A stretch of 64,000 nucleotides of DNA from the IMG/VR virus record IMGVR_UViG_3300029197_000003; one strand, written 5' to 3'. The notes under the pieces were generated by a model, which saw nothing but the letters and a program-made list of their open reading frames with translations, searched no databases and was not told the origin of the DNA. The position numbers were made by a program, and so were the translations under genes. This DNA is from a virus. Shown here piece by piece: positions 5,343 to 55,498 of the stretch (position 1 is the first letter of the stretch; each line of letters begins with the position of its first letter).

Positions 5343-5436
5343 ATTTATTTGCTATGTGTTGTGCATATTCGAGAAAAACTATAAACGCTAACGCAAAGGC
5401 CAGCAAAAAGAGAGAACAACAAATAACTTTTATCAT
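5299..5436 (-). CDS. candidate 45-aa membrane peptide (one TM helix plus an acidic tail)
   Basis: Hand translation gives MIKVICCSLFLLAFALAFIVFLEYAQHIANKYEGDNEDDEEDKTE. Its start makes an ATGA overlap with the erf stop. It is below the ORF-track length cutoff. Confidence 0.3.
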   Translation of the reverse strand: MIKVICCSLFLLAFALAFIVFLEYAQHIANKYEGDNEDDEEDKTE

Positions 5437-6071: not shown

Positions 6072-6270
6072 TGTGTTTGAATTTAAAAAGCAAAGCCGTC
6101 CGTACTTGCAGGTACGAACGGCCACCTTAGTATGAATTATGAGTATGAAAAGCGGAAGAACTAATTATCCCAATCCGTTGCGACCGCCCCTGTTAACTAT
6201 AGTCTCCTACCATTAACAAGTTGAATATTTGATAGAAACATCTTTCTTATATATAGCAAAAACGTAGTTG

Positions 6271-10844: not shown

Positions 10845-12065
10845 ATGAAATACAGCATACTATTCTCCCCAGATACACGTGGAGACCTCAGATTAACTAT
10901 ACGGTATCAGATGAAGCGCTTTACCTTCTCCCTTGGATATAAGGTAGACTCAGCCAAATGGGATAGGGATACGCAACGATGCAAACGAAATACCACGCAT
11001 GGCGAAGAAAAGGTGCCTGCGTCAAGAATAAATACGGAGATACAGCGATACGAAAGCGAAATAATCCGCTTGGCAGATGCGTACAAAGAGGCACCGACAT
11101 ACGACCAGTTCAAGGAAGACATTTCTTCCTTGTTTAGAATAAAAGAGGACGGGATTTCAAAAAATAAAAACCTGTTTGACCTCTATAATAAATACGTAGA
11201 AGAGGCTGGGAAAGAAAGTGGATGGTCATCATCAGTAAGGTATAAGCATAATCAGATATGGCATAACTTGTACGACTTCTTGCCATCGGCAAAAATAGAA
11301 GACATAAACGCTGGCATGCTCTCTAAATTTCGCGATTACCTTATTACGCAAGGCTATCAGAATGAGACAGTAAAAAAGAAAATATCCATGCTTAAATGGT
11401 TCTTCCGATGGCTCGTCACAAAGGGCATCATTAAGGATGTGAGCTTTACTACTTATCGGGCAAAATTAAAGCGCTCAAATAACACGGTTGTATTTTTAAC
11501 TTGGGAAGAGCTTATGAAAGTCTATAATTACCCGTTTAATGAGGGTTACTTATCACGAGCGAGAGATGTATTCTGCTTTTGCTGCTTCACTTCCTTGCGC
11601 TATTCCGATGTCGCCAAACTGAAGAAATCCGACATACAAAATGGAATAATCAATGTCATAACTCAGAAGACAAATGCCGCTTTAAAAATCGAATTGAACA
11701 AATACTCCAGTTCAATCCTTGATAAATACACGAAAATGGAAGGAGACAAAGCATTGCCAGTCGCATCCAACCAGAAGATGAACAACTATATAAAAGAAGT
11801 ATGCCGCCAGTGTGAGTTAAACGAAGTCATCACATGCACCCATTATATAGGCAACAAAAAAATAACAGAAAGCAAGCCAAAGTGGAAGGCGGTTGGTACA
11901 CATTGCGGACGTCGTACATTCATTTGTAATGCCCTCATGCTTGGAATACCGCCATCTATCGTCATGAAGTGGACAGGGCATTCCGATTATAGAGCCATGA
12001 AGCCATATATAGATATAGCCGACGAAGCTAAGAAAAATGCCATGAATTTGTTTGATAAAATATAG
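10845..12065 (+). CDS. int: tyrosine site-specific integrase (Bacteroidales phage-integrase type)
   Basis: 406 aa. The catalytic-domain pattern is SLRYSD...HCGRRTFICNAL...WTGHSDYRAMKPYIDI (R...HxxR...H...Y). The N-terminus is an arm-binding-type region, MKRFTFSLGYKVDSAKWD. Confidence 0.9.
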   Translation: MKYSILFSPDTRGDLRLTIRYQMKRFTFSLGYKVDSAKWDRDTQRCKRNTTHGEEKVPASRINTEIQRYESEIIRLADAYKEAPTYDQFKEDISSLFRIKEDGISKNKNLFDLYNKYVEEAGKESGWSSSVRYKHNQIWHNLYDFLPSAKIEDINAGMLSKFRDYLITQGYQNETVKKKISMLKWFFRWLVTKGIIKDVSFTTYRAKLKRSNNTVVFLTWEELMKVYNYPFNEGYLSRARDVFCFCCFTSLRYSDVAKLKKSDIQNGIINVITQKTNAALKIELNKYSSSILDKYTKMEGDKALPVASNQKMNNYIKEVCRQCELNEVITCTHYIGNKKITESKPKWKAVGTHCGRRTFICNALMLGIPPSIVMKWTGHSDYRAMKPYIDIADEAKKNAMNLFDKI

Positions 12066-28600: not shown

Positions 28601-31600
28601 TCATTCCAAGATGCTTCATAAAATCGGGGGCCTTCGCGAAGTCAAAAAAATTTCTATTGAAAATCTTTGAAGCATAATCCTTTCCTTTTTTGTAGATTGT
28701 ATTAAGGACATTTTCTATTGTGGAGTTTAATTCGGATTCTGCTTCTTCGCTGGCACGCTTCGCTTCTTCTTCAGCCTTTCGTTTCGCCTCCGCTTCAGCT
28801 TTCTCTTTAGCTATCCGTTCCTCCACCACCTTTGCTCTCTGCTGGGCAGGAACTTCTGCTATAGCCTTCCACTTGTCAAGTTCTTCCTGCGCTTTGGCAA
28901 TAGCCTGTGTGCGTACTTTAGCGGCCTTTACCTTTTCTGCAACAGAAACGCCAGAAGGCAATTTTATCTTTTTGGCTTTCTCCAATGCCTTCTCCTTGTC
29001 TTCCACCATAGACTTAGCAATCTCTTCTGCTTCTATCACGTTTCCCGCTTCCTCAGTCAGACCAGTAAAAGCAGTTTCGGCATCTGTCTGCTCATAGATA
29101 GGATTTCCGTTTTCGTCCTTTGGAATGCGCTCCAAGGCCGTAGGCTTATGCTCCTGCTCTGCTTGGGCAATAGCAGGTTTTCCTGCGTCTTCCTGCCCTG
29201 CCTGCGTAGGTGTAGCATCCACCTGTGGCGCGACTTCCGTGTCGCCCACCGCCTCTGTTTCATTCCAAAGCACATTGCCGTTTGCATCAGCAATCTCAGA
29301 AACACCGCTATCGAAGTCCGCAAGAGGGATGCGGTCTACCATTTTCCCATTATATGGCGCGTCAAACTCAATCTCCACGCCGTCTGCTGACAGATTGGTG
29401 ACACGTCCACTGACGGCATTTCCGCTGCCGTCTTTCATCTTGACATGGTAATCGTATTTGACTTCTGGCTTCGTTGGCTTCTCAGTAGCATCCGTAGCTG
29501 ACTGAGGTGTGACACCCTCTGCCGCTCCCTGTGCGTCTTCTTCCGATACGCCCTCTTGCTCCTTGTTGGCCAAGTTGTACTCCTCATTCATCGGCCCTTC
29601 TGCCGCATGGTATTCTTCGTCTGTCTCATCCAAATACGGCTCAATAGCCTCAAACTTACGTCCGCGGCCGCGTTGCTCTCGGAATACATCAATAGGGATA
29701 AGATAGTCATTGTTGTTTTGGTCAACGACTAAGACGCTTGCAGGATTCCCTTGTTCGTCATTGAAAACACATTTAATACCAACTTGCCGTCTATGTCCCT
29801 CTTCGTCCATCAGAATACCGCCTTGACCTGCCAGCGGAGTGTCCATGTTTAGATTGATAAGTCTCTGCTGTTCCTTATTTTCAGCATCAATCTTATCGTA
29901 CTTCCGTTGACGCTCGGTCATAGCATCGGATTCTTCAACAATACCTTCCACTTCGGATGCAGGAATCATTTCAATAACACCATTACCTTCACTGACAACA
30001 ACCGTTTCACCTGTAATGCTTCCGTTTTCGTATCTTCCACGAATAAGGAACACTGGCTTCTCCCTTCCTTTCACGTTCACCAGAATAACCTTTCCAGAGC
30101 CTCCTTCGCTGTCTGCTTCGTTCTCGAAGGTTATCTGTCTGATTACGCTGTCTGCGTGCTGTCTGCGTATGCTTTCGTCAGAGGTGATGCCATCCATCGC
30201 GCCCTTCTGCTGCTCACGGGCATTCAGGTAGGCCGACAGTGCAGCGTTTGCGGCCTTCTCGTCAAGCCCATTTTCCTTTGCAACTTCCACACCTTTTTTC
30301 AACTGCTCGGCAGGGGTCTCGCCAAGCGTATCGAGGTATGCGTCTATATCATCAGTAACGCCAAGTGCTGACATAGCCATTTCTCGCGTGTCAGCAAATG
30401 CCTGCTGAGCCTGCGCATATTCCTGCGGTGTCTGCATGTTGCGACCTTCTGCGTAAGCATGAATGGTCATGGCGTTCATTTCGTTCAACTCCTCGCCCGT
30501 GAGTGAGAAGGAATACTTTTCGCTAACAGCATTATTAAATACGGCTTGTGCCTTCTGTGCTCTCACGTAATTAAGGAACGCCTTCTTTTGTTCGTCTGAG
30601 AGAGATTTATTCTGGCATACGCCTGCATATATAGCGTTCACCAATGGCTCACCCTCCAGTCTGAGGATTGTGTTTTGAATCTTGTCCCAGTTCTCGTTGC
30701 CAAATAAACGTCTTGCGTTGGCTTCTGCTTTATCATAAGCGCTATTGACAGAGCGGAGCGTTCTGTAATATTTGACAGAACTTGCAGTGGAGGAGAAACC
30801 AAGCATAAAGATTGAGGAGGCCCAGACACTCAATGCCGTGTCAAGATTTTGTCTGCTATCAAAGATGTCTGCAAAGGTATAATTTTCATCGAAGGTAGCC
30901 GTCATCGGATTGGCGATATATTCTTCCAATACCTCATTTACAAATCCATCATAGCCACCTTTTTCAAATGTGCCATACACCTTTGACATAGCCTTGGCAA
31001 AAGCGCCGTTTTGTATCATGTGGATTGTTTTGTTATACGGCAAGGCTTCGCCAAAACTGCGGAGGCTAATCTTCCCGATGCCAAAAGCCTTGGCCACAGG
31101 CTCCAATACGTAAGTACCAACACGCTCTGAGACGTTTTGTACGAGCGTGTTTAATCCTGAGTGTAACAAGGAGTGCCCCCAGCTCTTTTCTTGCTGTGTG
31201 CCCGTTACGACAATACGTTGATTTTCATCAAACGTGTAATTCATCAAGCCCATCTTCTCAATTGCAGCATCAGAGATGATGCGCGGCATCTGAAATGAGC
31301 TATCAATCACACCAGCGGCATTGATAGCTGCCAGTCGCGTTGTTGCTCGGATGGTGGTATCAAAGAGCCAGTTCGTGCCGTATTTCGCGGCCATTCTGCT
31401 TCCACCCCTGATAATACCTCTTGCGGCAACATTTCCTGCGCCATAGGTCGCTATCGCACCAATGGTGAAGGGGAACGAATATCCAGCACCGAATGCTGGG
31501 CCATAAAGACGGCCTTCCCCGTGTCTATGAAATGCCGACATTGACTCTTGACTGAGCGAACGTGCAAGCCCTAAGCGGTCTTTGGCTTCCTGACCCATTT

Positions 31601-33515: not shown

Positions 33516-34927
33516 TTAAATACTTGTAAATCATTAGATTGTTTGATAGGCTTCGTTTCGCCATAGCTAACCCATTTTCCCTTGCTTCTGTCGAACTTTA
33601 TACGCTTCCCTTTATCGTTATAATAGACCGCGCTGCTATTCTGCTTGGCAGAAGGGATGTATCTATAACCTCCCTTTTGGGTGGTTTTTCCAGCCCCAAA
33701 CATAGCACCATTCCTCTCTGATGTAGAGTTAACATAAGCGCCCTTGTACTTCTTTGCTGCCGCATTAGCTTCTGCCTCGGTTGCATAGACGACATGGACG
33801 GTGAACTCCTTGGCCCTCTCGGCATTCCCAGTCCCTCTCGGAACGTAGATATATCGGTTCATGCGCCCCTGCTTATCTGGCTTGCCTGTGCCGCCTGCAC
33901 TTGTTTCGCTCCTATACTTATCGGCTGCTGCCTGATTTCTCGCAATGGTAGACGCGCCGACGGCAGCGCTTGTCGCGGCACGTTGCTTGGCAACATTGAG
34001 CATGCCCTCGTTATGTCTTCTTTGGTCTTCTGCTCTCTGTTTGTCGTTCTCGGCTTTTGCCTCCGCTGCTCTCTTGCGCGTATCAGCATCTTGTTCCTTG
34101 ATTTTAAGCTCAGATTGGGCAATAACGCGGTTGAAGGCGTCTTGTGCAAGTTTCTCTCGTGCTGTTTTTGCGGAAAGTTCCTGCTGCACGGCTTGCGTGT
34201 CAAGGCCGTATTTTTCTTTGAGAACCGCCATATACTTTGCAGCGTCCTTCTCGCGCTGTGCTACCATCTTATCCCATCGTGCCAAATTGGCCTTACTCAT
34301 AGAGGCATTGGGATTATAAGCGTTAGGTGCGCCCTTTGTCGTGAAATAAAGGTTGGAAAGCGCTTGGATGCCGTCACTGATAGCTGAATACAAAGCTCTC
34401 TGTTTGGCTCGCTTGTTCTCGCGTTCTTCCTTCTCTTTGGTGCGCTTAAGGCGGTCTAATGTCTCGTTGAGATAGTTGTTTAATTCCGTCAGTGAGTTGA
34501 CCTGCGCCTTATATGCTTCTGAGGGTGCTTCGCCCTTCTCGTTCAAAACGCGATTGTAGGCTTGCTCTGGCGTCTCATCAATGTTGGTTGGTGGTGTGGC
34601 GGTCGCCTGTGGCGTTGTCTGCTGTGCTGCCTGCGGTATTCCGTATTTCTGCGCATAAAGTTGCGTGGCAGTTTTCATATTCTGAGGTTCATATAACTGC
34701 GACTGCGGAATGTTAAGCGGTGGATTGCTCGCCAATGATGCCTCTGTAACCGCTGGTCTCTGCCCATAGTTCGGATTGGTGTTACCTTGGATGGCAGAAG
34801 GCGCTTGCCCTCCAGAAGAGGTCTGACCATTCTGCCAGTCCACGGGATATTGAGGATTAGCCTGCGGTGTGACAGGCTGCTCCTCCTGTTTTGGTTTAAC
34901 TCCTAAGATGTCACTTATTGCACTCAT
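33512..34927 (-). CDS. Q/P-rich plus coiled-coil protein, internal virion/ejection protein candidate
   Basis: 471 aa. The N-terminus is a low-complexity P/Q tract and the centre is an A/K/E/R coiled coil. It is translationally coupled to the giant ORF. Confidence 0.5.
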   Translation of the reverse strand: MSAISDILGVKPKQEEQPVTPQANPQYPVDWQNGQTSSGGQAPSAIQGNTNPNYGQRPAVTEASLASNPPLNIPQSQLYEPQNMKTATQLYAQKYGIPQAAQQTTPQATATPPTNIDETPEQAYNRVLNEKGEAPSEAYKAQVNSLTELNNYLNETLDRLKRTKEKEERENKRAKQRALYSAISDGIQALSNLYFTTKGAPNAYNPNASMSKANLARWDKMVAQREKDAAKYMAVLKEKYGLDTQAVQQELSAKTAREKLAQDAFNRVIAQSELKIKEQDADTRKRAAEAKAENDKQRAEDQRRHNEGMLNVAKQRAATSAAVGASTIARNQAAADKYRSETSAGGTGKPDKQGRMNRYIYVPRGTGNAERAKEFTVHVVYATEAEANAAAKKYKGAYVNSTSERNGAMFGAGKTTQKGGYRYIPSAKQNSSAVYYNDKGKRIKFDRSKGKWVSYGETKPIKQSNDLQVFK

Positions 34928-35472
34928 ACTTTTGCGTCGGTTTTCTGTTTCAAATCCTTTTTAGCATCTGCCATCTCGTCAAAAGCAAGCCCCGCCGTTG
35001 CTGCGGCTTGTCCGACACCTTGGATGGCGGCTGCGGTATTAGCTTGTTGTTGCTGAGACATCTGTATCCGTCTGTTGGCGAAGTTCTGCGTGTTGGCGAG
35101 ATGCTGATGTTCGATTGCGTCACGTTGCGCCATGCCTTGTGCGTTGATATTGCTCGCGGTCTGAGCGATGGCATTGTTGTTTTGTTCGCGTGCAGCCGCT
35201 GCTGCCGCCGCCGTGCCGCCCATCACGGCACTCTGCCCTGCCGCCGCCTGATTACGTTTGCGGATGCTGTCTTGCGTCATCGTGATAAGGCGCTGTGCAG
35301 AGGCACGCTGTGTATTGTCAGTATTGTACTCCCTGTCATACCAAGCCTTCTCTGCCGCTTCCTGCTCTTTGAGGAGACGGCGTTGTTTACGGGCTTCACG
35401 AGCATTCTTGATGCCGCCGAAGATGGCGCTTGCTGCGCCGACACCTGCTGAAATAGCTGTTCCTATTGCCAT
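34924..35472 (-). CDS. Ala/Gln-rich protein with a hydrophobic N-terminus, internal virion protein candidate
   Basis: ATG at 35472 (MAIGTAISAGVGAASAIFGGI) is preferred over the track start. There is a 4-nt overlap with the next gene. Confidence 0.5.
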   Translation of the reverse strand: MAIGTAISAGVGAASAIFGGIKNAREARKQRRLLKEQEAAEKAWYDREYNTDNTQRASAQRLITMTQDSIRKRNQAAAGQSAVMGGTAAAAAAAREQNNNAIAQTASNINAQGMAQRDAIEHQHLANTQNFANRRIQMSQQQQANTAAAIQGVGQAAATAGLAFDEMADAKKDLKQKTDAKV

Positions 35473-35911: not shown

Positions 35912-37888
35912 TTAGCCATAAAGGGCCTGCGCTCCTTGCTGAACGGCCTGCATGTTTGTTCCTTGCTGTATCTGCTGTTGAAGCTGCGGCGGTAATCCCT
36001 GCGGCTGCTGCCCGTTAGCGATTTGCTCCTGCTGGCTCTTTACACTCTGCAAGAGACTATCGGCAAACGGGAAGTTACCATTTTCAAGCAACTGTTCCAA
36101 CGATATTTGACCACTCCGCCAAATCTCCATTAGGAAGTCATTGGCGAGCTGACGGTAAACAGGGGATGACGCACTATCCTCAATGCTGAGGTCATACTCA
36201 ACGTCCTGCATCTTTTCTGGGTCGTACTCCACTTGTGCGCCCCTTCTTCCTGCAATATTGATAATGCGCTTGCTGTCGTAGTATTGCTGTATATTCTTTA
36301 CCGTCTTGTACGCGCCGTCTATTATGAAGTTGTTGAAACTTTCAAAAACATCACTCAACGATACGGCTGCATTGTTGGTCTGCTGAGCATAAAGCGTTCC
36401 GCTGGTTCCAGACTGGGCCTGCTTGCCTTGGATGGCTCCAGTTACGCCGCTCACATTCTCAAAAAACTTCAATTGCAGACTAAGTATTTCATTGATGCCA
36501 ATGTTGGTTGAGTTGTTCACCACCTGTTGGGGGATGCGTCCGCTCTTTCCTGGCTTGTAGAATACAACACCATTAAACTTACGCCATTCGCTGGCAAAAC
36601 GCTTCATGCTAACACCTTCGGGGATACAATCGGTAGGAATCATAAGCACACCCTTTGCCGTGGCGCGTATCAGCCAGTCAAACAGGGTTATCAGTCGGTT
36701 CACGTAACGCTGCTGGTCTATGAATCCACCCATAAAACTCTTAATAACGCCATCAATGAATGGATATGCCTTGAATACGTATGGATGACTCTTATGGGCG
36801 TAGGGTGTCTCGCCCTCATCCAAAATATATCCAAGCGGAGTAATGAAGTAATAATACCAATAGGAATCCAAAAACGCCTCGGCCTCTATGAGCGGTATGT
36901 CGTCTTCTGCCATGCCAGCGGACGTACCTTGTGCGATTCGTTGTTCGTTGACGCTTACGACAAGTTCTTGGTAGTCCGCTTCGTCAACCTTGAAGTATTC
37001 TCCAGTATTGAGGTCGTGACATCGAAATCTCGGTTTCTGTTCTTTCCTCCACACTTCTATCACCCTGCACTTGTTTGTGTCTTCGGCAAAGAGAAAGTCA
37101 AGGCGTTTAAGGTCAAAGTTACCAAACTGACGCATAGAATAACTTATCTGCTCACGAGTTCTTGCGCTCTTGTATATCTCTTTAAGGTATCGCGCATCAT
37201 CACTACTCTTGGCAAACTGAGAGCATAATTCTTCAAAGGTAATATCGTGTATCTCACCAATGCAGTTGACATCCCATCCTCTGAAATCTCGCACGCCGTC
37301 ATCAATGAAGAAATAATTTGGATTCACATAATCAATCCAGCAATCATTGTTCTCATTGCGCCATTCATACGACATACGATGCACCACAAAGCCGCTGATG
37401 AGAAATTCTTCAAAACTTCTTGGCTTTACTTCATTCATTCTGTTCTTCTGCATCACGCATTGAAGCACAGTACTCATGGTCTCGCTCAACTCCTGCTCGT
37501 CGCGGTCTCTTGCAGAGCAAAACGGCTCTTTGTTTTGTGAACGAAATACGCCGAGCATACTGCGCATAACGCTCCACATGTGGTTGTTCTGTAAAGGTTC
37601 GCTACCCTGTGAACGGATATAGTCCGACTCGCGCATCTTCGTGGTGCATCCGAGCCTTCCTTGCACTTGAATGTAGTCACCAAGCTGGTCGCCATATACA
37701 TACCTTCTTGTCCTCTCGCGTTCCTTGCGGAAGGTCTCCATATTGTTCCAGTAGTCCTGCACTTGATAGAGGATGGCAAGCCCACGGCGATTCCCCTTTA
37801 GTTTTGAACGCTCAACGGTATCAAATTCCACATTGGGTTTGACACGTCTTCCGCTGACAACGCTCATTGAAAATAATTTGTCGGCCAT
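35912..37888 (-). CDS. portal protein candidate
   Basis: About 660-705 aa. An alternative start at 38029 overlaps the upstream gene. The C-terminus is Q-rich. The central DQQRYVNRLITLFDWLIRATAKGVLMIP and W/Y-rich segments look portal-like. No other ORF of portal size lies near the head genes. Confidence 0.55.
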   Translation of the reverse strand: MADKLFSMSVVSGRRVKPNVEFDTVERSKLKGNRRGLAILYQVQDYWNNMETFRKERERTRRYVYGDQLGDYIQVQGRLGCTTKMRESDYIRSQGSEPLQNNHMWSVMRSMLGVFRSQNKEPFCSARDRDEQELSETMSTVLQCVMQKNRMNEVKPRSFEEFLISGFVVHRMSYEWRNENNDCWIDYVNPNYFFIDDGVRDFRGWDVNCIGEIHDITFEELCSQFAKSSDDARYLKEIYKSARTREQISYSMRQFGNFDLKRLDFLFAEDTNKCRVIEVWRKEQKPRFRCHDLNTGEYFKVDEADYQELVVSVNEQRIAQGTSAGMAEDDIPLIEAEAFLDSYWYYYFITPLGYILDEGETPYAHKSHPYVFKAYPFIDGVIKSFMGGFIDQQRYVNRLITLFDWLIRATAKGVLMIPTDCIPEGVSMKRFASEWRKFNGVVFYKPGKSGRIPQQVVNNSTNIGINEILSLQLKFFENVSGVTGAIQGKQAQSGTSGTLYAQQTNNAAVSLSDVFESFNNFIIDGAYKTVKNIQQYYDSKRIINIAGRRGAQVEYDPEKMQDVEYDLSIEDSASSPVYRQLANDFLMEIWRSGQISLEQLLENGNFPFADSLLQSVKSQQEQIANGQQPQGLPPQLQQQIQQGTNMQAVQQGAQALYG

Positions 37889-37986
37889 AAAATCATGATT
37901 TTTCACGAAAATAATAACACGGCGTGTTATGCTTTCAATATCTTTAAAATACAGATGGGGCGTACCAATAAGCACGCCCCATCTCT

Positions 37987-38271
37987 TCACGTCAAAATCT
38001 TGTTTACACTCTCTTTCAGCATACGACACATAAGTGTTTTCATGCGGTAGATGCGTGAATTTTTCAAGGCATTTACCCTTTGCTGGCTCATGCCGCTTAA
38101 CTCAGCAATAGTGCCTTCGCTCATTCCTTTTTCGATTAGGTAATCAACGAAAACCACACGTGCATTCACACTTCGTTCACTTCTACTTGTCGTGAACTCT
38201 TCAAAAGATAAACCGCTTGCGTTCATTGTAGCTTCAACGGCTTTATCAAATAATATCTGTAATTGTTTCAT
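37987..38271 (-). CDS. HTH DNA-binding protein
   Basis: ATG at 38271 (MKQLQILF). GMSEGTIAELSGMSQQRVNAL is an HTH of sigma-r4/LuxR style. Confidence 0.45.
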   Translation of the reverse strand: MKQLQILFDKAVEATMNASGLSFEEFTTSRSERSVNARVVFVDYLIEKGMSEGTIAELSGMSQQRVNALKNSRIYRMKTLMCRMLKESVNKILT

Positions 38272-38306: not shown

Positions 38307-38795
38307 CTATCCTCGCTTTTTGCTCCTCTTGGAATAAACAAAATAATACCACGCGCCAATTATCATCAGCAATACCGCTGCAAACTGAAACAAGCAGTCT
38401 TTGAATCGCTGCAAAATCGGCGGTTTCTCCTTCACCGTCTTGTTTTCTTTCTCCTTTCTCGTCTCTTTCTTGTCCGTTACACTCGTCTGCTGCTCTTCCT
38501 GCTTAGCATTGATAAAGTGCTTTGCGTTTCGGTTAGAAATGATTTTCTTTTCGCGTTCCGTATCGGTGCGAAGAACCTTGCCATCTGAATCAACCGTTAC
38601 CATTGTTAGCTCGGTAATAAAGACGGTGTCGGAGAGATATACGGTGTCAGCAATCGTAAGAATCTGCCGTTGTATCAACGTGTCACGTCTCTCTATCCTC
38701 ACTGAATCCGTGAACTCTTTCTCAACGATCGTTGTCTTGCGCGAACATGAAACAAGAGAGAGAAGAACAATAAAGAATAACAATGCCTTTTTCAT
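38307..38795 (-). CDS. unimolecular spanin candidate (N-terminal lipoprotein signal plus C-terminal TM)
   Basis: Starting from ATG 38795, MKKALLFFIVLLSLVSC carries a lipobox. The C-terminus is LFQFAAVLLMIIGAWYYFVY followed by SKRSKKRG. It is the last gene of the lysis cassette. Confidence 0.5.
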   Translation of the reverse strand: MKKALLFFIVLLSLVSCSRKTTIVEKEFTDSVRIERRDTLIQRQILTIADTVYLSDTVFITELTMVTVDSDGKVLRTDTEREKKIISNRNAKHFINAKQEEQQTSVTDKKETRKEKENKTVKEKPPILQRFKDCLFQFAAVLLMIIGAWYYFVYSKRSKKRG

Positions 38796-39052
38796 ATCAT
38801 CGCAATCAAAATGCCTGCAACATCGCAAAAGAAGTCCTTCCACTCTGATGTTCCCTGCCCTGTGAATCTGTCGAGCAATTCCTTGGAAACGGCAACCAAC
38901 AGCATGACGGCTACCATAACCCATACTGGCAGGAAGATAAGTGCCATCTTGGAGATAATAGTCATTACGATAATATGTGTAAGGCCATCAATGCTAAGTG
39001 AGGCAGCGAAGCCTGCCACCTTGCTGCATAGCTTGTAAAACCACTTAATCAT
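38792..39052 (-). CDS. holin candidate (small multi-TM protein)
   Basis: 86 aa with 2-3 hydrophobic helices. It lies between the endolysin and the spanin, with 4-nt overlaps on both sides. Confidence 0.4.
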   Translation of the reverse strand: MIKWFYKLCSKVAGFAASLSIDGLTHIIVMTIISKMALIFLPVWVMVAVMLLVAVSKELLDRFTGQGTSEWKDFFCDVAGILIAMI

Positions 39053-39582
39053 TTGTTCAAAATAAGATTGTCGTACATAATTGAATTAATTCGGCGTTCC
39101 CATCCTCTAAGGTTTTCTTGCTGGCTCTTGTCGTTCTTAACAATACTCTTGACGAACAACAACCGCATTTGCTTGATACGTCCAAACAACGGCAAGCCGC
39201 TTGTGCTGTTGACGGCAGCCAACGTCTTGTTGCCGATGATGCCGTCAACCTTCACGCCTACGAGCTTCTGTAATTGTCGCGCCGCCGTGCCAACGCCGCT
39301 TGCCCATGCCCAATCAACCATGATGTTAGCAACATTCTGGTCTGCTACCTTGTCAAGTCTCAGCGCATCCCAGTACATGGTTTTGAAAATCTCCTCCCAT
39401 TCGCTGGTAGTCATCGCTTTCAAGGTTTCAACCGTTGCAGGCTTGCCCTTTTTAGCGCAATACCCTCGCCACGTGTTTATCGTCACGCCCTTGTTTGTCG
39501 CGCCTCCTCTGTCGTTCTTTCGGTTGCAAAAACCGCCCTCCCATGATAAAATGAAGGGAATTATTTGTTTGTAATTTGCCAT
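39049..39582 (-). CDS. endolysin, GH108 N-acetylmuramidase with a C-terminal peptidoglycan-binding domain
   Basis: ILSWEGGFCNRKNDRGGATNKGVTINTW matches the GH108 signature (EGG...DxGGxTxxGIT). LQKLVGVKVDGIIGNKTLAAVN is a PG_binding_3-like segment. Confidence 0.8.
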   Translation of the reverse strand: MANYKQIIPFILSWEGGFCNRKNDRGGATNKGVTINTWRGYCAKKGKPATVETLKAMTTSEWEEIFKTMYWDALRLDKVADQNVANIMVDWAWASGVGTAARQLQKLVGVKVDGIIGNKTLAAVNSTSGLPLFGRIKQMRLLFVKSIVKNDKSQQENLRGWERRINSIMYDNLILNK

Positions 39583-40808: not shown

Positions 40809-41303
40809 TTACTTCTCCTCCTTCGTTGCCTCCTCAAACGCCTCGCCTGCATCCTTATCTTTCTTCTTTAGTATAGCGACAATAAAGCGTTTAAAAGAGA
40901 AATTAAACTTCACATTATGTATAGCGCACACGTGGCCTTTAATACTATCCAGTTCAAATATGGCAGCAAAGACAGAGCCTAACGCACCGCCCTCCTCGTA
41001 TGTACCTATACCCATAGGTTCAAGGAAAGACTTGCCAAGCAGCGCACCCGTCATGATGTAAATCATGTACTCGATGAATTTGCAAACGGTTCTTCTCCCT
41101 GCTCTGCTATATCTGAACGATTCCTTTTTCACCTTCACGCTTTCAGTCAGACCCAAATAAAAGTCTGCAATTATCATGAAGATAATAAACAACACCATCC
41201 ACCGCAGACCGTAAAACGTCTCTTCTATCTCTGTCGGAATGGTGTAATACGCTCCAATGCCTGCCAAGGCAACCAACGGATTTAAGATAAATGACGATTC
41301 CAT
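40809..41303 (-). CDS. multi-TM membrane protein resembling phage holin family 4_1 (LL-H type)
   Basis: 164 aa. IADFYLGLTESVKVKKESFRYSRAGRRTVCKF resembles the DxxTG...S...G..K core of that family. It has 3-4 TM helices. Confidence 0.4.
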   Translation of the reverse strand: MESSFILNPLVALAGIGAYYTIPTEIEETFYGLRWMVLFIIFMIIADFYLGLTESVKVKKESFRYSRAGRRTVCKFIEYMIYIMTGALLGKSFLEPMGIGTYEEGGALGSVFAAIFELDSIKGHVCAIHNVKFNFSFKRFIVAILKKKDKDAGEAFEEATKEEK

Positions 41304-43758: not shown

Positions 43759-43822
43759 ATTTCTTGTATGAGAGGATTAGGCAGGATGCACATCTGTACA
43801 CCCTGTCTAAATGTTAGTTTGG

Positions 43823-46935: not shown

Positions 46936-47616
46936 CTATTGTTTTTCTGATGGTTGAATATGAGCATGTCTGTATGCCAATGCCGTCATTACCTGCATTT
47001 GGTCTACGGAAGAGAATACGGCAGCGGCCATTGCTGCATTTGCGTACACAATGGCGCGTCTCAACTTTGGGCATATAGTAATTTTGCCTTCTTTCGCCAC
47101 TGGCTTTTGCACATATTTGAATGATGCGACCTTGGCAGTCTTCGCGCTGCAATAAAACTCCAATACGTTGTTTGGTACATCTATGGCAATTGCTGGGTGT
47201 CTTGGTGTCGCACCAATGCCGCTATATTGGTCTTGAAGACGTTCATAAGCAGGAGTCTCCTGTGCGGTAGGCATTGACACGGCGTAATCCCAGTCGTTCA
47301 TCTTAAACGATACAAGGCGAAGGAAATCACTCGGCAGGGCAACGCTTCCTGCTTGTATGGCGCTACCTTTCTTCTCCTTTCCCCATGATACGATGTAGTC
47401 TTCTCCCTCCTTGACGGCATCATCGCACCCTTCCAACATCTCCAATGGCGCACCTTCTTCAATAGCCGTTGCAGCGTCAACCATTGTGGAGCGTATAATC
47501 TCGTCAAGTGTCAGCGTATCGGTGTCTCCAAGCATGGAAAGAGCCTTGCCGTCCATATTCTGGTCAAGCGCCACTCGTACCTCTTTCACCAAATCGTCAA
47601 TGTTGCAGGTCTCCAT
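46936..47616 (-). CDS. virion structural protein (function unknown)
   Basis: ORF track, 226 aa, between the capsid and fibre genes. Confidence 0.45.
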   Translation of the reverse strand: METCNIDDLVKEVRVALDQNMDGKALSMLGDTDTLTLDEIIRSTMVDAATAIEEGAPLEMLEGCDDAVKEGEDYIVSWGKEKKGSAIQAGSVALPSDFLRLVSFKMNDWDYAVSMPTAQETPAYERLQDQYSGIGATPRHPAIAIDVPNNVLEFYCSAKTAKVASFKYVQKPVAKEGKITICPKLRRAIVYANAAMAAAVFSSVDQMQVMTALAYRHAHIQPSEKQ

Positions 47617-48094: not shown

Positions 48095-49537
48095 TTACTT
48101 ATGTGCAAGCTGCACGCGTGCATGTGCCTTTGGATAGCGTAGGTACAAGCAGGAGATTTCCTGCAAAACCGCTGCATCCGTGTTGCGGATTCCTGCCTTC
48201 TTCAAATCAAGGACGTTGCGCTTGAACGAAAGGAAGGTTTTCTTTGTGAGGTATTCGGGGTCAAGCACAAAGCCGCAATCCTTCATCTCGCACTGATTAA
48301 ACAACTCGTGGTGAATGGTGAGGATTTCGCCGAAATCGGTTTCCCATGATTTAAACTTCAAGTTCCATTTCTCAACAGAATCCTTCAGGCGGAATTTCTC
48401 TGACTTAACCTTTGACAGGGTAGCAAGGAGGTCGGAGCCACAGAACATAATCTTGCGGCCGTTACTCAATCCTGTACCTACAAAGATGTCGCGTGAGAAG
48501 TCAACCAAGTCGTCATCGCTAATAACGCAAGCGTTTTCCTTTTCGTCCCAATGGCCAATGGTGTACTTGGGGCAACCCATCCACCAAATACCCTTGGTGA
48601 AGTAACGAGCCATACCGTCTTTTGAGGCATGCTTAATAACATTCTTGTCGCCGAAAAGAATACTCATCTCCTGGGTCACACGCATATCGTAGATAGCGTC
48701 TTCTTCGAGGTCGGTGAAGTTCCAGTCAACTTCCTTATCGCTCATCTTGTCAATCGTAGACTGTTCCACCTGAATCATGTAGTTCTGGCAGTACTGCTCT
48801 TCTGCGGTCGGCAGATTATTGAATCGGCCAGTCTGTACATCCAATTCTCCGCATGACTTCCCCATACGTACAAGAACGGTCTTTGCGTTGATGGCAGGAA
48901 GCCAAATGTTGTTGCTCGTCTCGGTTGAAACCTCACCATTAACGGCAAACACCTGCGGATAACCTTCGCTGTCCTTTCCGCACACGCAAAGGACGAGGTC
49001 GGGCACCACTTCCTTCTTGGCGTCATAGGCGGAACCATTCTCCTTGGTGACAGCAGGAACACCGCAAACGCGAATAGTATCATCAATAGTGAAGATATTT
49101 GGGTCTTCAACCTTGAGTGATACGCGGTCGCCGCCAGTCTGCTTAACTACCGCTTCTTTAAGAAGGGTCTTAGTTGGACGTGTTCCTACGCTGTAGTACT
49201 TGACAATAAATGAATCCGTCTGTTGGGCGCTTGCCTGTCGGCTGATTTGGTCAATCGGCGTTGCCATAGGACGGATTTTGCAAATCTTCTGGTCAATGTC
49301 TTTGACGTAGAAATCGGGGTCTCCGTTCTCTCGTCCGTGCTGCATGGTGGCGGCACCTTCAACATTCATAGGCTTTTCTGGGCTTGCCGTGCCGCTGTCG
49401 GTCTTACCTGCGTCGGGCAAATCGGCGGCGGCAGCCATCATGACATTACCGCCTGCACCCAAGACAAAGCATAATACACTAAGAAGCAGGAAGCCAACAA
49501 ACTTCATTGCTCCTTTAAAACTGATAGTCTGTTTCAT
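48095..49537 (-). CDS. major capsid protein candidate (HK97-fold type) with an unusual hydrophobic N-terminus
   Basis: It follows the scaffold-like gene by 22 nt if it starts at ATG 49537. Alternative ATGs are at 49696 and 49369. Size, position and a strong downstream terminator fit a capsid gene. Confidence 0.55.
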   Translation of the reverse strand: MKQTISFKGAMKFVGFLLLSVLCFVLGAGGNVMMAAAADLPDAGKTDSGTASPEKPMNVEGAATMQHGRENGDPDFYVKDIDQKICKIRPMATPIDQISRQASAQQTDSFIVKYYSVGTRPTKTLLKEAVVKQTGGDRVSLKVEDPNIFTIDDTIRVCGVPAVTKENGSAYDAKKEVVPDLVLCVCGKDSEGYPQVFAVNGEVSTETSNNIWLPAINAKTVLVRMGKSCGELDVQTGRFNNLPTAEEQYCQNYMIQVEQSTIDKMSDKEVDWNFTDLEEDAIYDMRVTQEMSILFGDKNVIKHASKDGMARYFTKGIWWMGCPKYTIGHWDEKENACVISDDDLVDFSRDIFVGTGLSNGRKIMFCGSDLLATLSKVKSEKFRLKDSVEKWNLKFKSWETDFGEILTIHHELFNQCEMKDCGFVLDPEYLTKKTFLSFKRNVLDLKKAGIRNTDAAVLQEISCLYLRYPKAHARVQLAHK

Positions 49538-49559: not shown

Positions 49560-50393
49560 TTATTTGAATTTTGTTCGTTTTTCGTCAGAATCCCAAATGC
49601 TTCCGCGACTGGCGATAGCATCCAGTGCGCCAAGGTCAGGGCTGCTCTGACTTTTAGACGCGCCACGGCTCTTTCCTCCGAGTGAAGGAACACCATCGCT
49701 ATTCTTACTTTTTTTCAACTTCATGTCTATTTTCGCGTTGCGACCTCTGATTTCCCCCGCGTTTCCTGCTTCTTGCACATCCATGTCGTGCGTGATGGAT
49801 TTACGGGCGAGGTCAAGGCTTTCTTCTGTGAACTTACCTACGATAGCATCTGATGCAATCTGAACGATAAACTGAAAGGCTTCATCTACTTGTTCGTCTG
49901 TCAAATTGTTTTTCTTTTGCCAGTCGTCTGCGGCCTGCAAGGAATCGTCAAGGTTCTTCCTATATTCCTCCTCAAGGCTCTTTTCCTTGGCGACACGTTC
50001 AACATATTCTCTGTTCGCCGCTGCCACCTCTTCCTGCTTCTCTGGGTCGTTGGCCATATCGCCGACATCCTTTCCATACAATTTGATGAGCGTGAGGCGA
50101 GGGTCGCCACCATTGGCGAAGTCGGCAAACAGTGCTGCGTTGCGTTCGTCAGCGTTGAACATATTCGTCAACTTTCTTTCGTCTTCGCGGTAGCGGTTCA
50201 ATTCGCTCTCCGTACTGTCGTAGTCGTCAGAAATCTGGCCGAACATAGCCTCTTCATCATCAAAGTTTTTGTCGGGATATTTCTCAGAAAGTCGCTTCTT
50301 GAATGCGTCACGCTTGCTTGGTGTAGGCGTGGCCTCTCCTGCCGATGGAATCTTCACGTTGCCATCACCCGTACTAACTTGTTTATCTGCCAT
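49560..50393 (-). CDS. scaffolding protein candidate
   Basis: 277 aa, highly acidic and helical (DDEEAMFGQISDDYDSTESELNRYREDERKL). It lies directly upstream of the capsid candidate. Confidence 0.55.
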   Translation of the reverse strand: MADKQVSTGDGNVKIPSAGEATPTPSKRDAFKKRLSEKYPDKNFDDEEAMFGQISDDYDSTESELNRYREDERKLTNMFNADERNAALFADFANGGDPRLTLIKLYGKDVGDMANDPEKQEEVAAANREYVERVAKEKSLEEEYRKNLDDSLQAADDWQKKNNLTDEQVDEAFQFIVQIASDAIVGKFTEESLDLARKSITHDMDVQEAGNAGEIRGRNAKIDMKLKKSKNSDGVPSLGGKSRGASKSQSSPDLGALDAIASRGSIWDSDEKRTKFK

Positions 50394-50432: not shown

Positions 50433-50440
50433 CAAAAGTA
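50433..50440 (-). promoter_or_regulatory. -7 box TACTTTTG for the leftward late operon (scaffold onward)
   Basis: The minus strand has TACTTTTG 40 nt upstream of ATG 50393. TTTG (50459-50456) lies upstream, but the 15-nt spacing is short. Confidence 0.35.
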
Positions 50441-50487: not shown

Positions 50488-50495
50488 TATCTTTG
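50488..50495 (+). promoter_or_regulatory. -7 box TATCTTTG for the rightward terminase operon
   Basis: An exact TAnnTTTG lies 23 nt upstream of ATG 50518. It is divergent from the 50433 box. Confidence 0.4.
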
Positions 50496-50517: not shown

Positions 50518-50916
50518 ATGAAGAAAAAGTTTAGTACGATAGAATACGAGGGCGAGAGAGCGAGAGAGGTTATACATGCCTGTCGGGAGACAATGAAAAA
50601 AGTGAAGCATATCAATGTCCTTGACATCTTCGCAGAGGCCGTCAAGCAGCCATCGTCTCGCTACTGGGTAAGCGAGGACCGCGCAATCTATGTGATGCGT
50701 CGGATGCTTCGTGGTGACGACCTGTCTTACATGAGGCAGACGAAGCGAAAAATGTTCTACGAGCTTTTCTGGCGGTTCATCGAATGCAAGAGAAAGCACG
50801 AGGATGCAGGCGTGTGTAATATTGTCCGAAAGATAATATACACGCCTGCATCCTCATTTTTTCTCACATCGGCATCAGCAAAGGCAATATATTATAAGCA
50901 TAAGGATGAAAAATAG
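50518..50916 (+). CDS. hypothetical basic protein, small-terminase candidate by position only
   Basis: 132 aa. It is the first gene of the operon containing terL. It contains a long hairpin at 50800-50855. Confidence 0.45.
   Translation: MKKKFSTIEYEGERAREVIHACRETMKKVKHINVLDIFAEAVKQPSSRYWVSEDRAIYVMRRMLRGDDLSYMRQTKRKMFYELFWRFIECKRKHEDAGVCNIVRKIIYTPASSFFLTSASAKAIYYKHKDEK
50800..50862 (+). terminator. long hairpin plus T-tract inside the 50518 ORF (attenuator, terminator or packaging-site candidate)
   Basis: GAGGATGCAGGCGTGT (50800-50815) pairs perfectly with ACACGCCTGCATCCTC (50840-50855). The stem extends inward to about 23 bp with an 8-nt loop. TTTTTT follows at 50857-50862. Confidence 0.5.
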
Positions 50917-51394
50917 CAATCTTGACATAAATATCTTGTTGGCGGTCTCGTTGGCGCTTTTCGTGTTATCGTTCATCAGCCAAGATTCCGTGCAAATTTC
51001 ACGGAATATGGCCTTAAATCGCCTATTTTATCCCCTTTTTCACGCCAACTCGATTCATGCGATTTTAAATATATTTTGCATTCTTCAATTGGCGTTCTAT
51101 TACCGCATGTCGCGTTGGTATCTGCTGGCATCTTACATCATTGCCGTAACGGCACCTTCCAGCCTTATTGAAGGGACGATTGGTTTTTCTGGGGTTATCT
51201 TCGCAGCACTTGGCCTATATTCGATGATAGTAACAAGAGGGTGGGTGATTGCCGCTCATGTGGCCTTATATTGTTCGCTGACGGCATTATTTTCGTGTGT
51301 GAATACTCTACTGCACCTTTATTGTTATGCGGTTGGCTTCGTCTGCTCACTATTAATAACTGAAAAACAATGGTGGAGATGGAGAAAGATATAG
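50906..51394 (+). CDS. minimal rhomboid-family intramembrane serine protease (6 TM, 162 aa)
   Basis: FHANSIHAILNIF matches the TM2 HxxxxHxxxN motif. IGFSGVIFAALG matches the TM4 GxSG motif with the catalytic Ser. LLHLYCYAVGF supplies the TM6 His. There are six hydrophobic helices. Confidence 0.6.
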   Translation: MKNSNLDINILLAVSLALFVLSFISQDSVQISRNMALNRLFYPLFHANSIHAILNIFCILQLAFYYRMSRWYLLASYIIAVTAPSSLIEGTIGFSGVIFAALGLYSMIVTRGWVIAAHVALYCSLTALFSCVNTLLHLYCYAVGFVCSLLITEKQWWRWRKI

Positions 51395-53490
51395 AGCGGA
51401 TAATAGCAGAGGACAACGAGCGCATGAAGCGCTACCATTATGAGCCTAACCCGATAACAGGGGAAGGCTATTTTGGCGAGCGCGAGAAGATTGAGATAGA
51501 TGACTTCCCGATTCCTGTGCAGTTGGTTCCTAAAAGGATGCTGAAGATACCGTTCGTCAAGCAGCTGGTCAAGCATGGCAGTATAGAGAACTTCCTCTAT
51601 GAGGTGATGGAGGAGGAAAACACGGAAGAGGCACGTGACACGGTTGTGCAGCAATTCATTCGATACCGCATCCGCTATGATTTCCCCTTTTTCTCGGCCT
51701 TGTTCCTGTATATTAAGGCGAAAGGTGGAGGCCGTGACATCCTCTTTCGCTTGACACGCCCACAACGCAGATTGGTCAATCGCTTCATGGAGCTATATGA
51801 AGCCAAGAAGCCAATACGTATTATTCTTTTAAAGGCTCGTCAGCTTGGCGGTTCAACACTCATTCAGTTGTTCATGCTATGGATGCAGATAACGCAGGAA
51901 TACGGCCTTAACTCGCTCATTATCGCTCATCAGTCTATCGCATCGGACGAAATCCTTGATATGTTCAACAAGGCAGTAACGCAGCTGCCTTCATGGATAT
52001 TACATAAGCTTGGAGAGCAATACAAGGCGAATGAATCTACATTTGTCAATGTCGGCCACAGCGGAGCCATTAAACGTGTTCCTCAGCGAGATTGTAAGAT
52101 TAAGGTCGGAACCGCTGAGCGTCCTGATTCCTGCCGTGGTGGTGACTACAACCTTATCCACCTCTCCGAGGTTGGTCTATGGAAGACAACAGATGGAAAA
52201 AGCCCAGAAGACATTGTGCAGTCTGCCTGCTCTGGTGTCCTCTATAAGCATCGCACAATGATAGTGTATGAATCAACCGCTAAGGGTGTAGGAAACTTCT
52301 TCCACCGCGAGTTCCTTGCTGCCTTTGAGGGGAAATCGCAATTTGAAGCTATCGTTATATGCTGGTATGACATCGACCTTTATGTTCTGCCATTCGCAGA
52401 CGATAAGGAAAGAGAGAGCTTCGCGCGTTCAATGTATGAACATAGGAACGACACAGAAGCATCTTCTGAACGTGAGGAATGTGGCCAATACATCTACTGG
52501 CTATGGCAGAAAGGTGCAACATTGGAGGCCATAAACTGGTACATAGCTGAGCGCCGAAAATATTCAGACCATGCCCGTATGGCCTCAGAGTACCCCTCTG
52601 ATTACATTGAAGCCTTCAGCTTCAGCGGCGAAATCGTCTTCGACCGCCATCAAGTAGAAGAATTGCGTCACACATGCAAGGCTCCTCGTGCTGTCGGTGA
52701 CATCGTGGCTGACGCTAATGAAGGCATGAGAGCATTATCTAACGTTCGTTTCAGCGAAGAGAAGAAGGGTGGTTTGTCAATATGGGAATATCCAGAGATA
52801 TTCACGGATAACACGGTGGTTACTGACAGATATTTGACTGTTGTAGACATCGGTGGTCGTTCTTCCAAGGCAGACTGGTCGGTTATTGTTGTCTTCGATA
52901 GGTTCGCCATGCAGTGGGGTGGAAAACCAGAGGTTGTGGCCCAGTGGTACGGACACATAGACATGGATATTCTCGCATGGAAGGCAGCACAGATAAGCAG
53001 ATATTACGACAATGCAGAACTGGTGATAGAATCCAACACGTTAGAGACGCATGACAGGGAGCGAATGGTTGACGGCGACCAATCTGGTTATATTCTCAAC
53101 CGCATCAAGGATTATTATCCTAATCTATATGCTCGCGACCAATCAGAAGAAGAAATATTGCAGAACGCGCCTAAGAAATATGGGTTCCACACCAATACAG
53201 CGACCAAGCCAATTGTCGTCAGTGCATTGCAGCGAGCGGTGAGAGAGAGACTCTATGTTGAGCGAGACGGCAGGTGCCTCGACGAGATGATTAGCTATGA
53301 GCGCAAGCCAAATGGCGCATTTGGTGCCATTCTCGGCTGCCACGATGACCTGCTTATGACGAGAGCTATTGGCATGCACATCTGCTTCTCTAAGATGCCG
53401 CTTCCAAAGATAGTTGACAAGACAAGATATGTTGAAGAAGTCTTCCAACACGAGATACCAGGTAAAAATATTGACAACGAAAAACGTTAA
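51370..53490 (+). CDS. terL: terminase large subunit
   Basis: ILLKARQLGGSTLIQ is a Terminase_6-type Walker A (KxRQxGxS). DYNLIHLSEVGLW is Walker B. VVDIGGRSSKADWSVIVVFD is the start of the RNaseH-like nuclease domain. Confidence 0.85.
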   Translation: MVEMEKDIERIIAEDNERMKRYHYEPNPITGEGYFGEREKIEIDDFPIPVQLVPKRMLKIPFVKQLVKHGSIENFLYEVMEEENTEEARDTVVQQFIRYRIRYDFPFFSALFLYIKAKGGGRDILFRLTRPQRRLVNRFMELYEAKKPIRIILLKARQLGGSTLIQLFMLWMQITQEYGLNSLIIAHQSIASDEILDMFNKAVTQLPSWILHKLGEQYKANESTFVNVGHSGAIKRVPQRDCKIKVGTAERPDSCRGGDYNLIHLSEVGLWKTTDGKSPEDIVQSACSGVLYKHRTMIVYESTAKGVGNFFHREFLAAFEGKSQFEAIVICWYDIDLYVLPFADDKERESFARSMYEHRNDTEASSEREECGQYIYWLWQKGATLEAINWYIAERRKYSDHARMASEYPSDYIEAFSFSGEIVFDRHQVEELRHTCKAPRAVGDIVADANEGMRALSNVRFSEEKKGGLSIWEYPEIFTDNTVVTDRYLTVVDIGGRSSKADWSVIVVFDRFAMQWGGKPEVVAQWYGHIDMDILAWKAAQISRYYDNAELVIESNTLETHDRERMVDGDQSGYILNRIKDYYPNLYARDQSEEEILQNAPKKYGFHTNTATKPIVVSALQRAVRERLYVERDGRCLDEMISYERKPNGAFGAILGCHDDLLMTRAIGMHICFSKMPLPKIVDKTRYVEEVFQHEIPGKNIDNEKR

Positions 53491-55467: not shown

Positions 55468-55498
55468 ATTCCCGCAACAAGAAATTGCGGGAATTTTT
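55468..55498 (+). terminator. Rho-independent terminator
   Basis: ATTCCCGCAA-CAAGAAA-TTGCGGGAAT is a 10-bp stem followed by TTTT. Confidence 0.65.

Follow-up and report, generated by a model that had tools for sequence, protein, structure and literature searches.

What is an intramembrane protease gene doing in the packaging operon of a tailed phage? The question is raised by a 64,000-nucleotide (nt) stretch of viral DNA, IMG/VR record IMGVR_UViG_3300029197_000003, here called the window, in which an initial annotation made from the sequence alone had placed a phage-encoded, minimal rhomboid protease directly upstream of the gene for the large terminase subunit, terL, and overlapping it. We report that the gene is a fixed core late gene of a large temperate Bacteroidales phage lineage, and that its product is, judging by its sequence and its structural model, very probably an active rhomboid protease. 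The coordinates of the features discussed are collected in Table 1.

The minimal rhomboid and its catalytic residues

The open reading frame (ORF) of 162 amino acids (aa) with six helices that the initial annotation described, and the placing of its motifs in the second, fourth and sixth transmembrane (TM) helices, were confirmed by the ORF coordinates and by the helices of an AlphaFold model. The motif FHANSIHAILN carries H46, H51 (codon 51056-51058) and N55 (codon 51068-51070); H51 and N55 lie within model helix 49-64 and H46 immediately N-terminal to that helix. The GlpG residues that match this HxxxxHxxxN arrangement in TM2 we take to be those of the oxyanion hole. The tetrapeptide GFSG (G93-F-S95-G96) places the catalytic S95 (codon 51188-51190) at the onset of helix 95-105, and the catalytic H137 (codon 51314-51316) stands in LLHLYCY, in helix 134-160. 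At its 5′ end the gene overlaps the ORF 50518..50916, which we call up, by 11 nt; at its 3′ end it overlaps terL by 25 nt, as had been annotated, and the downstream ORF does match the "terminase large subunit" family of PHROGs.

A word-indexed search found 11 close relatives of the protein, and one of these bears in nr the name "MAG TPA: Rhomboid protease GlpG [Caudoviricetes sp.]". An exhaustive HMMER profile search over 1.84 billion representatives yielded 328 family representatives, 129 of them at E<=1e-10 and almost all of 145-180 aa. The family alignment comprises 100 diverse members, 25-59% identical to the window protein, and besides Met1 only H51, N55, G93, S95 and H137 are invariant in it; R39, Y42, H46, P84, G103 and G144 are conserved in at least 90% of the members. 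The same five residues are intact in all 96 unique proteins (96/96) encoded by 166 fetched loci, among which we found no decayed or pseudoprotease copy. The family profile matches Haemophilus influenzae GlpG (2nr9) with E=7.7e-10 over positions 7-161, covering all six TM helices, and Escherichia coli GlpG with E of about 1e-5; HxxxxHxxxN, GxSG (GLSG in GlpG) and the TM6 His are paired residue for residue. Individually, 80 of the 100 family members match Pfam Rhomboid (E<=0.001).

The AlphaFold model, built from the 100-sequence alignment, has six TM helices, a predicted local distance difference test (pLDDT) score of 90.8 and a predicted template-modelling score (pTM) of 0.86; it replaces a model computed on a shallow alignment of 12 sequences (pLDDT 45.6). 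Comparison of a model with GlpG had been proposed as a check of the Ser-His geometry; as to the fold, the top eight Foldseek matches are all GlpG structures (prob 1.00, TMq 0.56-0.68, best 0.63-0.68), followed by iRhom1 and, very weakly, by Der1 (E=4.8, prob 0.20).

The latter two matches, of which that to Der1 is very weak, would agree with a non-proteolytic adaptor, in which the rhomboid fold acts with up as Derlins and iRhoms do, holding the machinery of packaging or assembly at the membrane or thinning the bilayer, with catalysis irrelevant. The tight coupling to terL and the fusion of a cytoplasmic domain to the rhomboid in some phages (see below) would also fit. Pseudoproteases, however, lose the catalytic residues, and here 96/96 and 100/100 sequences, 25-59% identical overall, all keep the Ser, the His, HxxxN and the glycine of GxS, so that we consider such an adaptor very unlikely. 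The further alternative, a hydrophobic ORF that arose by chance or a host gene captured and now decaying, could appeal to a sub-threshold Pfam score of the single sequence and to the lack of a PHROGs match; it is refuted by the 166 loci, the 96 unique intact proteins, their deep conservation, the high-confidence fold and a fixed synteny with coupled start and stop codons, and can practically be dismissed.

Two observations speak against the family assignment. Taken alone, the window protein scores 17.8 bits against Pfam Rhomboid (PF01694), under the gathering cut-off of 22.6 bits, and the residue before the catalytic His, position 136, is L in 48%, I in 26%, V in 17% and A in 4% of the family, in place of the usual A/G. 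A single-sequence search of PDB with the window rhomboid likewise gave no match, and no PHROGs family matches the rhomboid, gp50 of phage BKO1-TP3 included. The assignment therefore rests on the orthologues and on the family profile. In the Pfam comparison put forward in the initial annotation, the window protein itself stays under the cut-off; orthologues from cultured phages (33.6 and 35.4 bits) and a further orthologue (25.0 bits) lie above it. The L/I/V at position 136 is, on the alignment, a clade-specific deviation at a flanking residue and not at the catalytic His.

The remaining motifs were compared with the textbook definitions, including GxSx and A/G-H (PMC12615303). The H-x4-H-x3-N of TM2 is present (H46 in 99%, H51 and N55 in 100%). 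In the first loop (L1) the Arg is kept as an "xR" motif, with R39 conserved in 91-96%, a variable preceding residue (N/A/Q/T/S) and no retention of the Trp of WR; such a variant has been described for class B secretases (PMC12615303). TM6 shows C/A/G140-x3-G144 (G144 in 91%, position 140 small in all members) and TM4 shows G96-x3-A100-x2-G103, a small-xxx-small pattern and not a strict GxxxG.

Loop charges (K+R) amount to 7.3 for the two termini together with L2 and L4 versus 1.8 in L1, L3 and L5, which points to an N-in/C-in topology like that of GlpG; the Ser-His site should therefore be accessible from the periplasmic face of the host's inner membrane. With GlpG (E. coli, H. influenzae; PF01694, MEROPS S54) the phage protein would thus share the topology, besides the six-helix fold and the aligned TM4 GxSG Ser, TM6 His, TM2 HxxxN and L1 Arg. 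It differs in its size of about 160 aa, in lacking an N-terminal cytoplasmic domain (instead of which there is a separate or fused up), in a shorter L1, in having [LIV]-H and not A-H, in the absence of a conserved WR Trp, in an identity of 14-19%, and in being phage-encoded and locked to terL. The rhombosortase RssP (TIGR03902) is similarly compact and devoid of an N-terminal domain, and its model is the only one in NCBIfam with any match; the phage family scores 16-27 bits against it (best 27.1; the window protein itself has no NCBIfam match) versus a cut-off of 84, and is not a member. No curated subfamily in the NCBIfam scan captures the clade. In architecture the protein stands nearest to GlpG and the compact rhombosortases, without belonging to either curated subfamily, and we regard it as a real, phage-specific variant of the rhomboid family. 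The minimal phage rhomboid that had been annotated is borne out by profile homology to GlpG, by the fold match, by the invariant catalytic residues and by synteny.

The up-rhomboid-terL module

How constant, then, is the neighbourhood of the gene? The order [MCP <- scaffold] <> [up -> rhomboid -> terL], where MCP is the major capsid protein, is found in almost all of 79 rhomboid-seeded IMG/VR loci. Among the MCP-seeded loci, 78/80 carry rhomboid and terL; the remaining two, which lack both, are apparently truncated just upstream of MCP. A survey of the terL neighbourhood in relatives, as the initial annotation had suggested, shows the rhomboid adjoining terL in nearly all loci long enough, with terL orthologues of 43-69% identity directly 3′ of it, and almost all loci that extend far enough have up upstream of the rhomboid. 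The start and stop codons of up, rhomboid and terL overlap or abut in all loci showing the module, and the 25-nt overlap in the window suggests translational coupling of rhomboid and terL. Cultured relatives of the phage are the Bacteroides phages BKO1-TP3, BS-TP4 and BF1-TP2; the most divergent of them, BF1-TP2, keeps the module, with identities of 47% for the MCP and 44% for terL. The module also occurs in the distant family members P0012, P0050 and P0150, the contigs of P0100 being too short to reach terL. In MW202692, the nearest terL outgroup (27% identity), no rhomboid adjoins terL; it is too distant to be informative.

A Bacteroides-type -7 promoter box precedes up and a mirror box faces the scaffold/MCP operon. 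Both are consensus matches only, the motif showing no significant enrichment across the window. Because of the position of the -7 box and of the first strong terminator on that strand, at 55468-55494, it is probable that up, rhomboid and terL are transcribed late as a single unit together with four further ORFs.

The upstream gene appears to be tied to the rhomboid more closely than by position. In P0125 (L259:1980-2858, 292 aa; 9 contigs) up is fused in frame to an intact rhomboid, with terL next: residues 1-132 of the fusion align end to end with the up protein of the window (33% identity, E=4e-24) and are directly followed by TM1. In P0137 (L261:4385-5008) there is no separate up gene and the rhomboid carries a basic N-terminal extension of 77 residues. 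The P0125 fusion agrees with the N-in topology and suggests that up and the rhomboid cooperate on the cytoplasmic side, and we infer that up is a cytoplasmic partner of the protease. Such a coupling of a rhomboid to a terminase operon, together with a dedicated cytoplasmic partner, is undescribed. The sequence and the profile of up matched nothing in Pfam or PDB; up may be a small terminase, a substrate adaptor or a protein of another kind, and the profile searches speak neither for nor against the first of these.

The window also encodes, at 35556-35834 (+), a core protein of 92 aa with a GRKKGTPNK-type basic N-terminus; its homologue in BF1-TP2 is annotated as DUF5681, and the window protein had no match in Pfam. 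It could be the true small terminase, which would leave up free as a rhomboid-specific partner.

An arrangement comparable to that of up is known from YqgP of Bacillus subtilis, where a rhomboid core is reported to be combined with a cytoplasmic domain (PMC7231995), as with up, which is separate in the window and fused in P0125. YqgP differs in that up has no detectable similarity to known domains and that no FtsH link is known for the phage rhomboid.

The YqgP parallel leads to a host-directed protease, which would late in infection cleave host inner-membrane proteins (e.g., transporters, subunits of respiratory complexes or envelope sensors), or hand them over to FtsH via its cytoplasmic partner, with the membrane remodelled for phage production or exclusion. 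Validated bacterial rhomboid enzyme-substrate pairs number only four, and all four substrates are cellular membrane proteins (PMC11389362); the extramembrane domain of YqgP is reported to serve as an FtsH adaptor (PMC7231995), and a dedicated cytoplasmic domain is seen in the fusion with up. Moreover, the Stenotrophomonas phages DLP3 and DLP5 list a different, 175-aa rhomboid gene, which is not listed near their terminase gene. An accessory gene of this kind would, however, normally occupy a variable region, with losses and gains, whereas the present gene never leaves up-rhomboid-terL beside the scaffold and MCP genes in more than 160 loci with hosts from Bacteroides to Prevotellaceae and Rikenellaceae. 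The strong divergence of the family from cellular rhomboids (NCBIfam matches of at most 27 bits) argues in the same direction, and we hold a host-directed role to be unlikely.

Candidate substrates and a proposed role in processing

What would the protease cut? We propose that, late in infection, the rhomboid would reside in the host inner membrane together with up and would clip the membrane-embedded N-terminal segment of the precursor of a phage virion protein, and thus serve as the morphogenetic processing protease of a phage in which a conventional prohead protease was not detected. For this explanation as a whole the chances appear about even to us. The same holds for the narrower statement that the substrate is a phage structural protein, in which case the MCP and a 182-aa protein with an N-terminal glycine zipper (gene 34924..35472) would be roughly equal contenders.

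The prohead proteases of HK97-fold phages (S49/ClpP-like, S77, S78 and S80) are soluble and packaged in the procapsid, and none is known to be intramembrane. If the processing proposal is right, the rhomboid would resemble them in cutting the N-terminal propeptide off a virion protein and in the location of its gene in the head/packaging module; it would differ from these soluble enzymes in acting within the membrane. A scan of about 50 ORFs of the window detected no prohead protease of the conventional kind and, besides the rhomboid, a single peptidase, the S24 repressor. The rhomboid matches none of the known soluble prohead protease families, so any maturation role would be one of analogy and not of membership.

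We applied the type I/III filter for bacterial rhomboid substrates (PMC7232013, PMC2941825) to the window, BF1-TP2 and BKO1-TP3. It leaves exactly two recurrent, homologous single-pass candidates, the N-terminus of the MCP and the Gly-zipper protein. The initial annotation had named four, namely the capsid N-terminus, the u-spanin, the 34924-35472 protein and a TM hairpin of the giant protein; lineage-wide conservation was found for two of them only, the capsid N-terminus and the 34924-35472 protein. The ORFs over the TM threshold that are shared with BF1-TP2 are those of the MCP and the giant protein only, and the segment of the latter is weak there: with Asn-Asn inside it in BF1-TP2, the hydrophobic stretch of the giant protein was judged a weak candidate. 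The u-spanin and the holin have no detectable homologues in BF1-TP2 and were set aside as conserved substrates. A C-terminal Gly-rich/TM/basic signal recurring across the lineage was not found.

The same comparison bears on a lysis-timing protease, which would cut the holin or the TM segment anchoring the u-spanin-like lipoprotein at its C-terminus (Table 1) and so trigger or restrain lysis. The required proteins are all present in the window (a holin, a GH108 endolysin and a lipoprotein with C-terminal TM and basic tail), the spanin anchor has the N-out/C-in orientation that rhomboids prefer, and lysis and packaging are both late functions. The rhomboid is invariant in the lineage, though, while the lysis proteins have no detectable homologues in BF1-TP2, and some 10 kb separate it, in the terminase operon on the opposite strand, from the lysis genes. 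To our knowledge no described lysis system employs a rhomboid, and a literature search likewise gave none. We rate a role in lysis timing as unlikely, and as less likely than a host-directed one.

Of the two recurrent candidates, the MCP has the more elaborate N-terminus. In 76/76 unique orthologues it consists of about three K/R, a TM-grade helix (17-aa Kyte-Doolittle (KD) mean of 2.07), a G-A-S-S-G-like patch and V-x-M-A-x-A-x-x-LPDAG, and the Pfam match to SU10_MCP begins at residue 76 only. The segment is translated, third-codon-position substitutions being enriched 2.65-fold. V-x-M-A|x-A stands at one fixed offset in 74/74 sequences and fits the P4-hydrophobic/P1-small/P2′-hydrophobic rule for rhomboid recognition motifs (PMC2941825). 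In the capsid version of the proposal, the MCP would be made as a membrane-anchored precursor, and the rhomboid with up, co-expressed with the terminase, would cut V-x-M-A|x-A, freeing the capsid protein or procapsids from the inner membrane; we consider this version rather improbable. It would be the prokaryotic equivalent of the release of the hepatitis C virus core protein by signal peptide peptidase. The MCP N-terminus also resembles a Sec signal peptide or a type II anchor, which is unexpected for a cytoplasmic capsid protein.

The composition of this segment invites comparison with rhombosortase substrates, which were first proposed from co-distribution of the enzyme with a signal of Gly-rich patch, transmembrane domain (TMD) and basic end, and were validated biochemically for VesB (PMC11389362). 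The MCP N-terminus carries the same three elements. They differ in being N-terminal, in mirror order (basic, TMD, Gly/Ser patch) and in the opposite orientation, and there is no C-terminal GlyGly-CTERM.

The second candidate retains its design, a Gly-zipper helix followed by a basic cluster, in 39/39 distinct orthologues. In all three divergent genomes (window, BF1-TP2, BKO1-TP3) it is predicted to be N-out/C-in, the orientation preferred by rhomboids (PMC7232013). The same architecture is found in TatA, the substrate of AarA in Providencia stuartii, a small N-out/C-in protein with a TM rich in small residues, from which a short N-terminal piece is removed; AarA differs in its 7 TM helices and its cellular origin, and the 182-aa protein is no TatA homologue, with its cleavage hypothetical. 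Its gene stands first in an operon that continues with those of the giant protein and of a 471-aa protein, an arrangement suggestive of a set of internal or ejection proteins. The consensus of its N-terminal glycine zipper is MGLIGSAIGAAGSIFGGI; the protein further contains the basic cluster and a WYDRRYNED motif.

Several points weigh against processing of either protein. By charge (n-region +3, acidic after the TM) the MCP segment is N-in/C-out, an orientation that rhomboids do not prefer and in which the body of the capsid protein would lie on the wrong membrane side, a topological contradiction within the capsid version; and V-x-M-A|x-A equally reads as an A-x-A signal-peptidase site. According to Strisovsky et al., a type II protein is still cleavable if a motif outside the TMD loops back (PMC2941825). 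The Gly-zipper helix is marginally hydrophobic (17-aa KD of 1.5-1.8) and may never insert in the producing cell. Finally, rhomboid, MCP signal and Gly-zipper protein accompany one another in every lineage member sampled, so that co-occurrence gives no means of choosing between the substrates.

The phage, its relatives and earlier records

Judged by its genes, the window is a temperate Bacteroidales phage with an SU10-type capsid and a P22-type portal. Its three cultured relatives have been reported as temperate gut phages (PMC12694917). Bacteroides congonensis and Phocaeicola massiliensis harbour integrated copies, and others are found on contigs of Bacteroides ovatus and of metagenome-assembled genomes of Prevotellaceae and Rikenellaceae. 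The linked capsid gene is present in more than 500 IMG/VR loci, and the best 120 matches of the MCP database search are all at least 60% identical. For twelve ORFs of the window tblastn gives a homologue in BF1-TP2, where the rhomboid is recognisable by profile only. An assignment of the lineage to "Quimbyviridae" was rejected, the TerL of Quimbyviridae grouping with myoviruses.

Table 1. Position and description of the features of the window (TM, transmembrane; MCP, major capsid protein).
Feature	Coordinates	Strand	Description
Mini-rhomboid gene	50906..51394	+	162 aa, ATG start, TAG stop at 51392-51394, six TM helices in AlphaFold model
up	50518..50916	+	132-aa basic protein, phrog_27246 (unknown family), first operon gene
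Large terminase terL	51370..53490	+	706 aa; phrog_2, 1.8e-21
Scaffold-like acidic protein	49560..50393	-	277 aa, phrog_22323; divergent from rhomboid operon, then MCP gene
Bacteroides-type -7 promoter box TATCTTTG	50488..50495	+	Consensus match; 23 nt upstream of up ATG
Mirror -7 box TACTTTTG	50433-50440	-	Consensus match; faces scaffold/MCP operon
Intrinsic-terminator-like hairpin	55468..55494	+	10-bp stem and T-run; first strong one 3′ on that strand
SU10-type MCP	48095..49537	-	SU10_MCP, 4.6e-28
Candidate A, N-terminal 45 residues of MCP	49403..49537	-	Basic n-region, TM-grade helix, small-residue patch, V-M-M-A|A-A, LPDAG
Candidate B, N-terminus of 182-aa protein (gene 34924..35472)	35377..35472	-	Uncharged Gly-zipper helix MAIGTAISAGVGAASAIFGGI, then KNAREARKQRR
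SU10-like adaptor	46936..47616		23.1 bits, below Pfam cut-off of 27
P22-type portal	35912..38029
"Large polyvalent protein" (giant protein)	13677..33515	-	6612 aa
u-spanin-like lipoprotein	38307..38924	-	C-terminal TM and basic tail, type I orientation; downstream of GH108 endolysin, same strand
GH108 endolysin	39049..39582
Phage_holin_4_1 holin	40809..41303		25.2 bits
ERF recombinase	5433..6125
S24 repressor	9165..9935
Tyrosine integrase	10845..12065

Some further observations concern the neighbouring modules. Holin and endolysin are separated by an unannotated ORF of 394 aa, and the true start of the ORF at 38307-38924 (-) is probably an internal Met (MKKALLFFIVLLSLVSC...), giving a lipoprotein. 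The giant protein comprises MuF_C, InPase, N6_Mtase, ResIII/SNF2/Helicase_C, PBECR3 nuclease, LPD14 and LPD38 domains; the part conserved in BF1-TP2 is the last 750 residues or so at the C-terminus (5714-6457), with the weak hydrophobic stretch at aa 6248-6266. Inside the structural block, 42859-45163 (-) encodes a family-2 glycosyltransferase (GtrB-like, 1.6e-29) and a hexapeptide-repeat acyltransferase-like protein, possibly for modification of virion or host-surface glycans. PHROGs v4 families were found for the MCP (phrog_26635), the scaffold (phrog_22323), up (phrog_27246) and a 951-aa protein (phrog_32516). Outside the Bacteroides lineage, terL is closest to the terminases of Vibrio and Aeromonas phages, at 23-27% identity, and the 301 records matching it include many Shiga toxin (Stx)-converting phages.

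Rhomboid labels already exist in phage records and are automatic only: gp8 of BS-TP4 is a "rhomboid domain-containing protein", gp59 of BF1-TP2 is called "rhomboid family intramembrane serine protease", and BFVD has "GlpG-like" proteins of uncultured podoviruses. Pipelines based on PHROGs leave the gene unannotated, because no PHROGs v4 family matches it. Two annotation errors were noticed in the relatives: gp50 of BKO1-TP3 (L001:5043-5561), the rhomboid, is annotated as "glycoside hydrolase", and terL as "tail spike protein" in GenBank PQ571269, PQ571277 and PQ571263 (L001:5554-7668, L002:5298-7394 and L087:6043-8070).

The statement of the initial annotation that rhomboids have no described role in tailed-phage assembly holds in the literature searched, where we found no paper discussing the function of any phage rhomboid. 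The paper on the cultured Bacteroides relatives (PMC12694917) does not mention the gene, and a 2025 review of the rhomboid superfamily, with its more than 122,000 members, says nothing of viruses.

Few membrane proteases are as widespread as the rhomboids, and here one is fixed in a very common group of human-gut Bacteroidales phages. With a genome of about 65 kb, a handful of possible membrane substrates and three cultured relatives, the question of what a bacterial-type rhomboid cuts can be put to a direct test. Should a virion protein turn out to be the substrate, tailed-phage assembly would gain an unprecedented membrane-embedded step; and were the capsid version true, intramembrane proteolysis would be a capsid-maturation step of a tailed phage.

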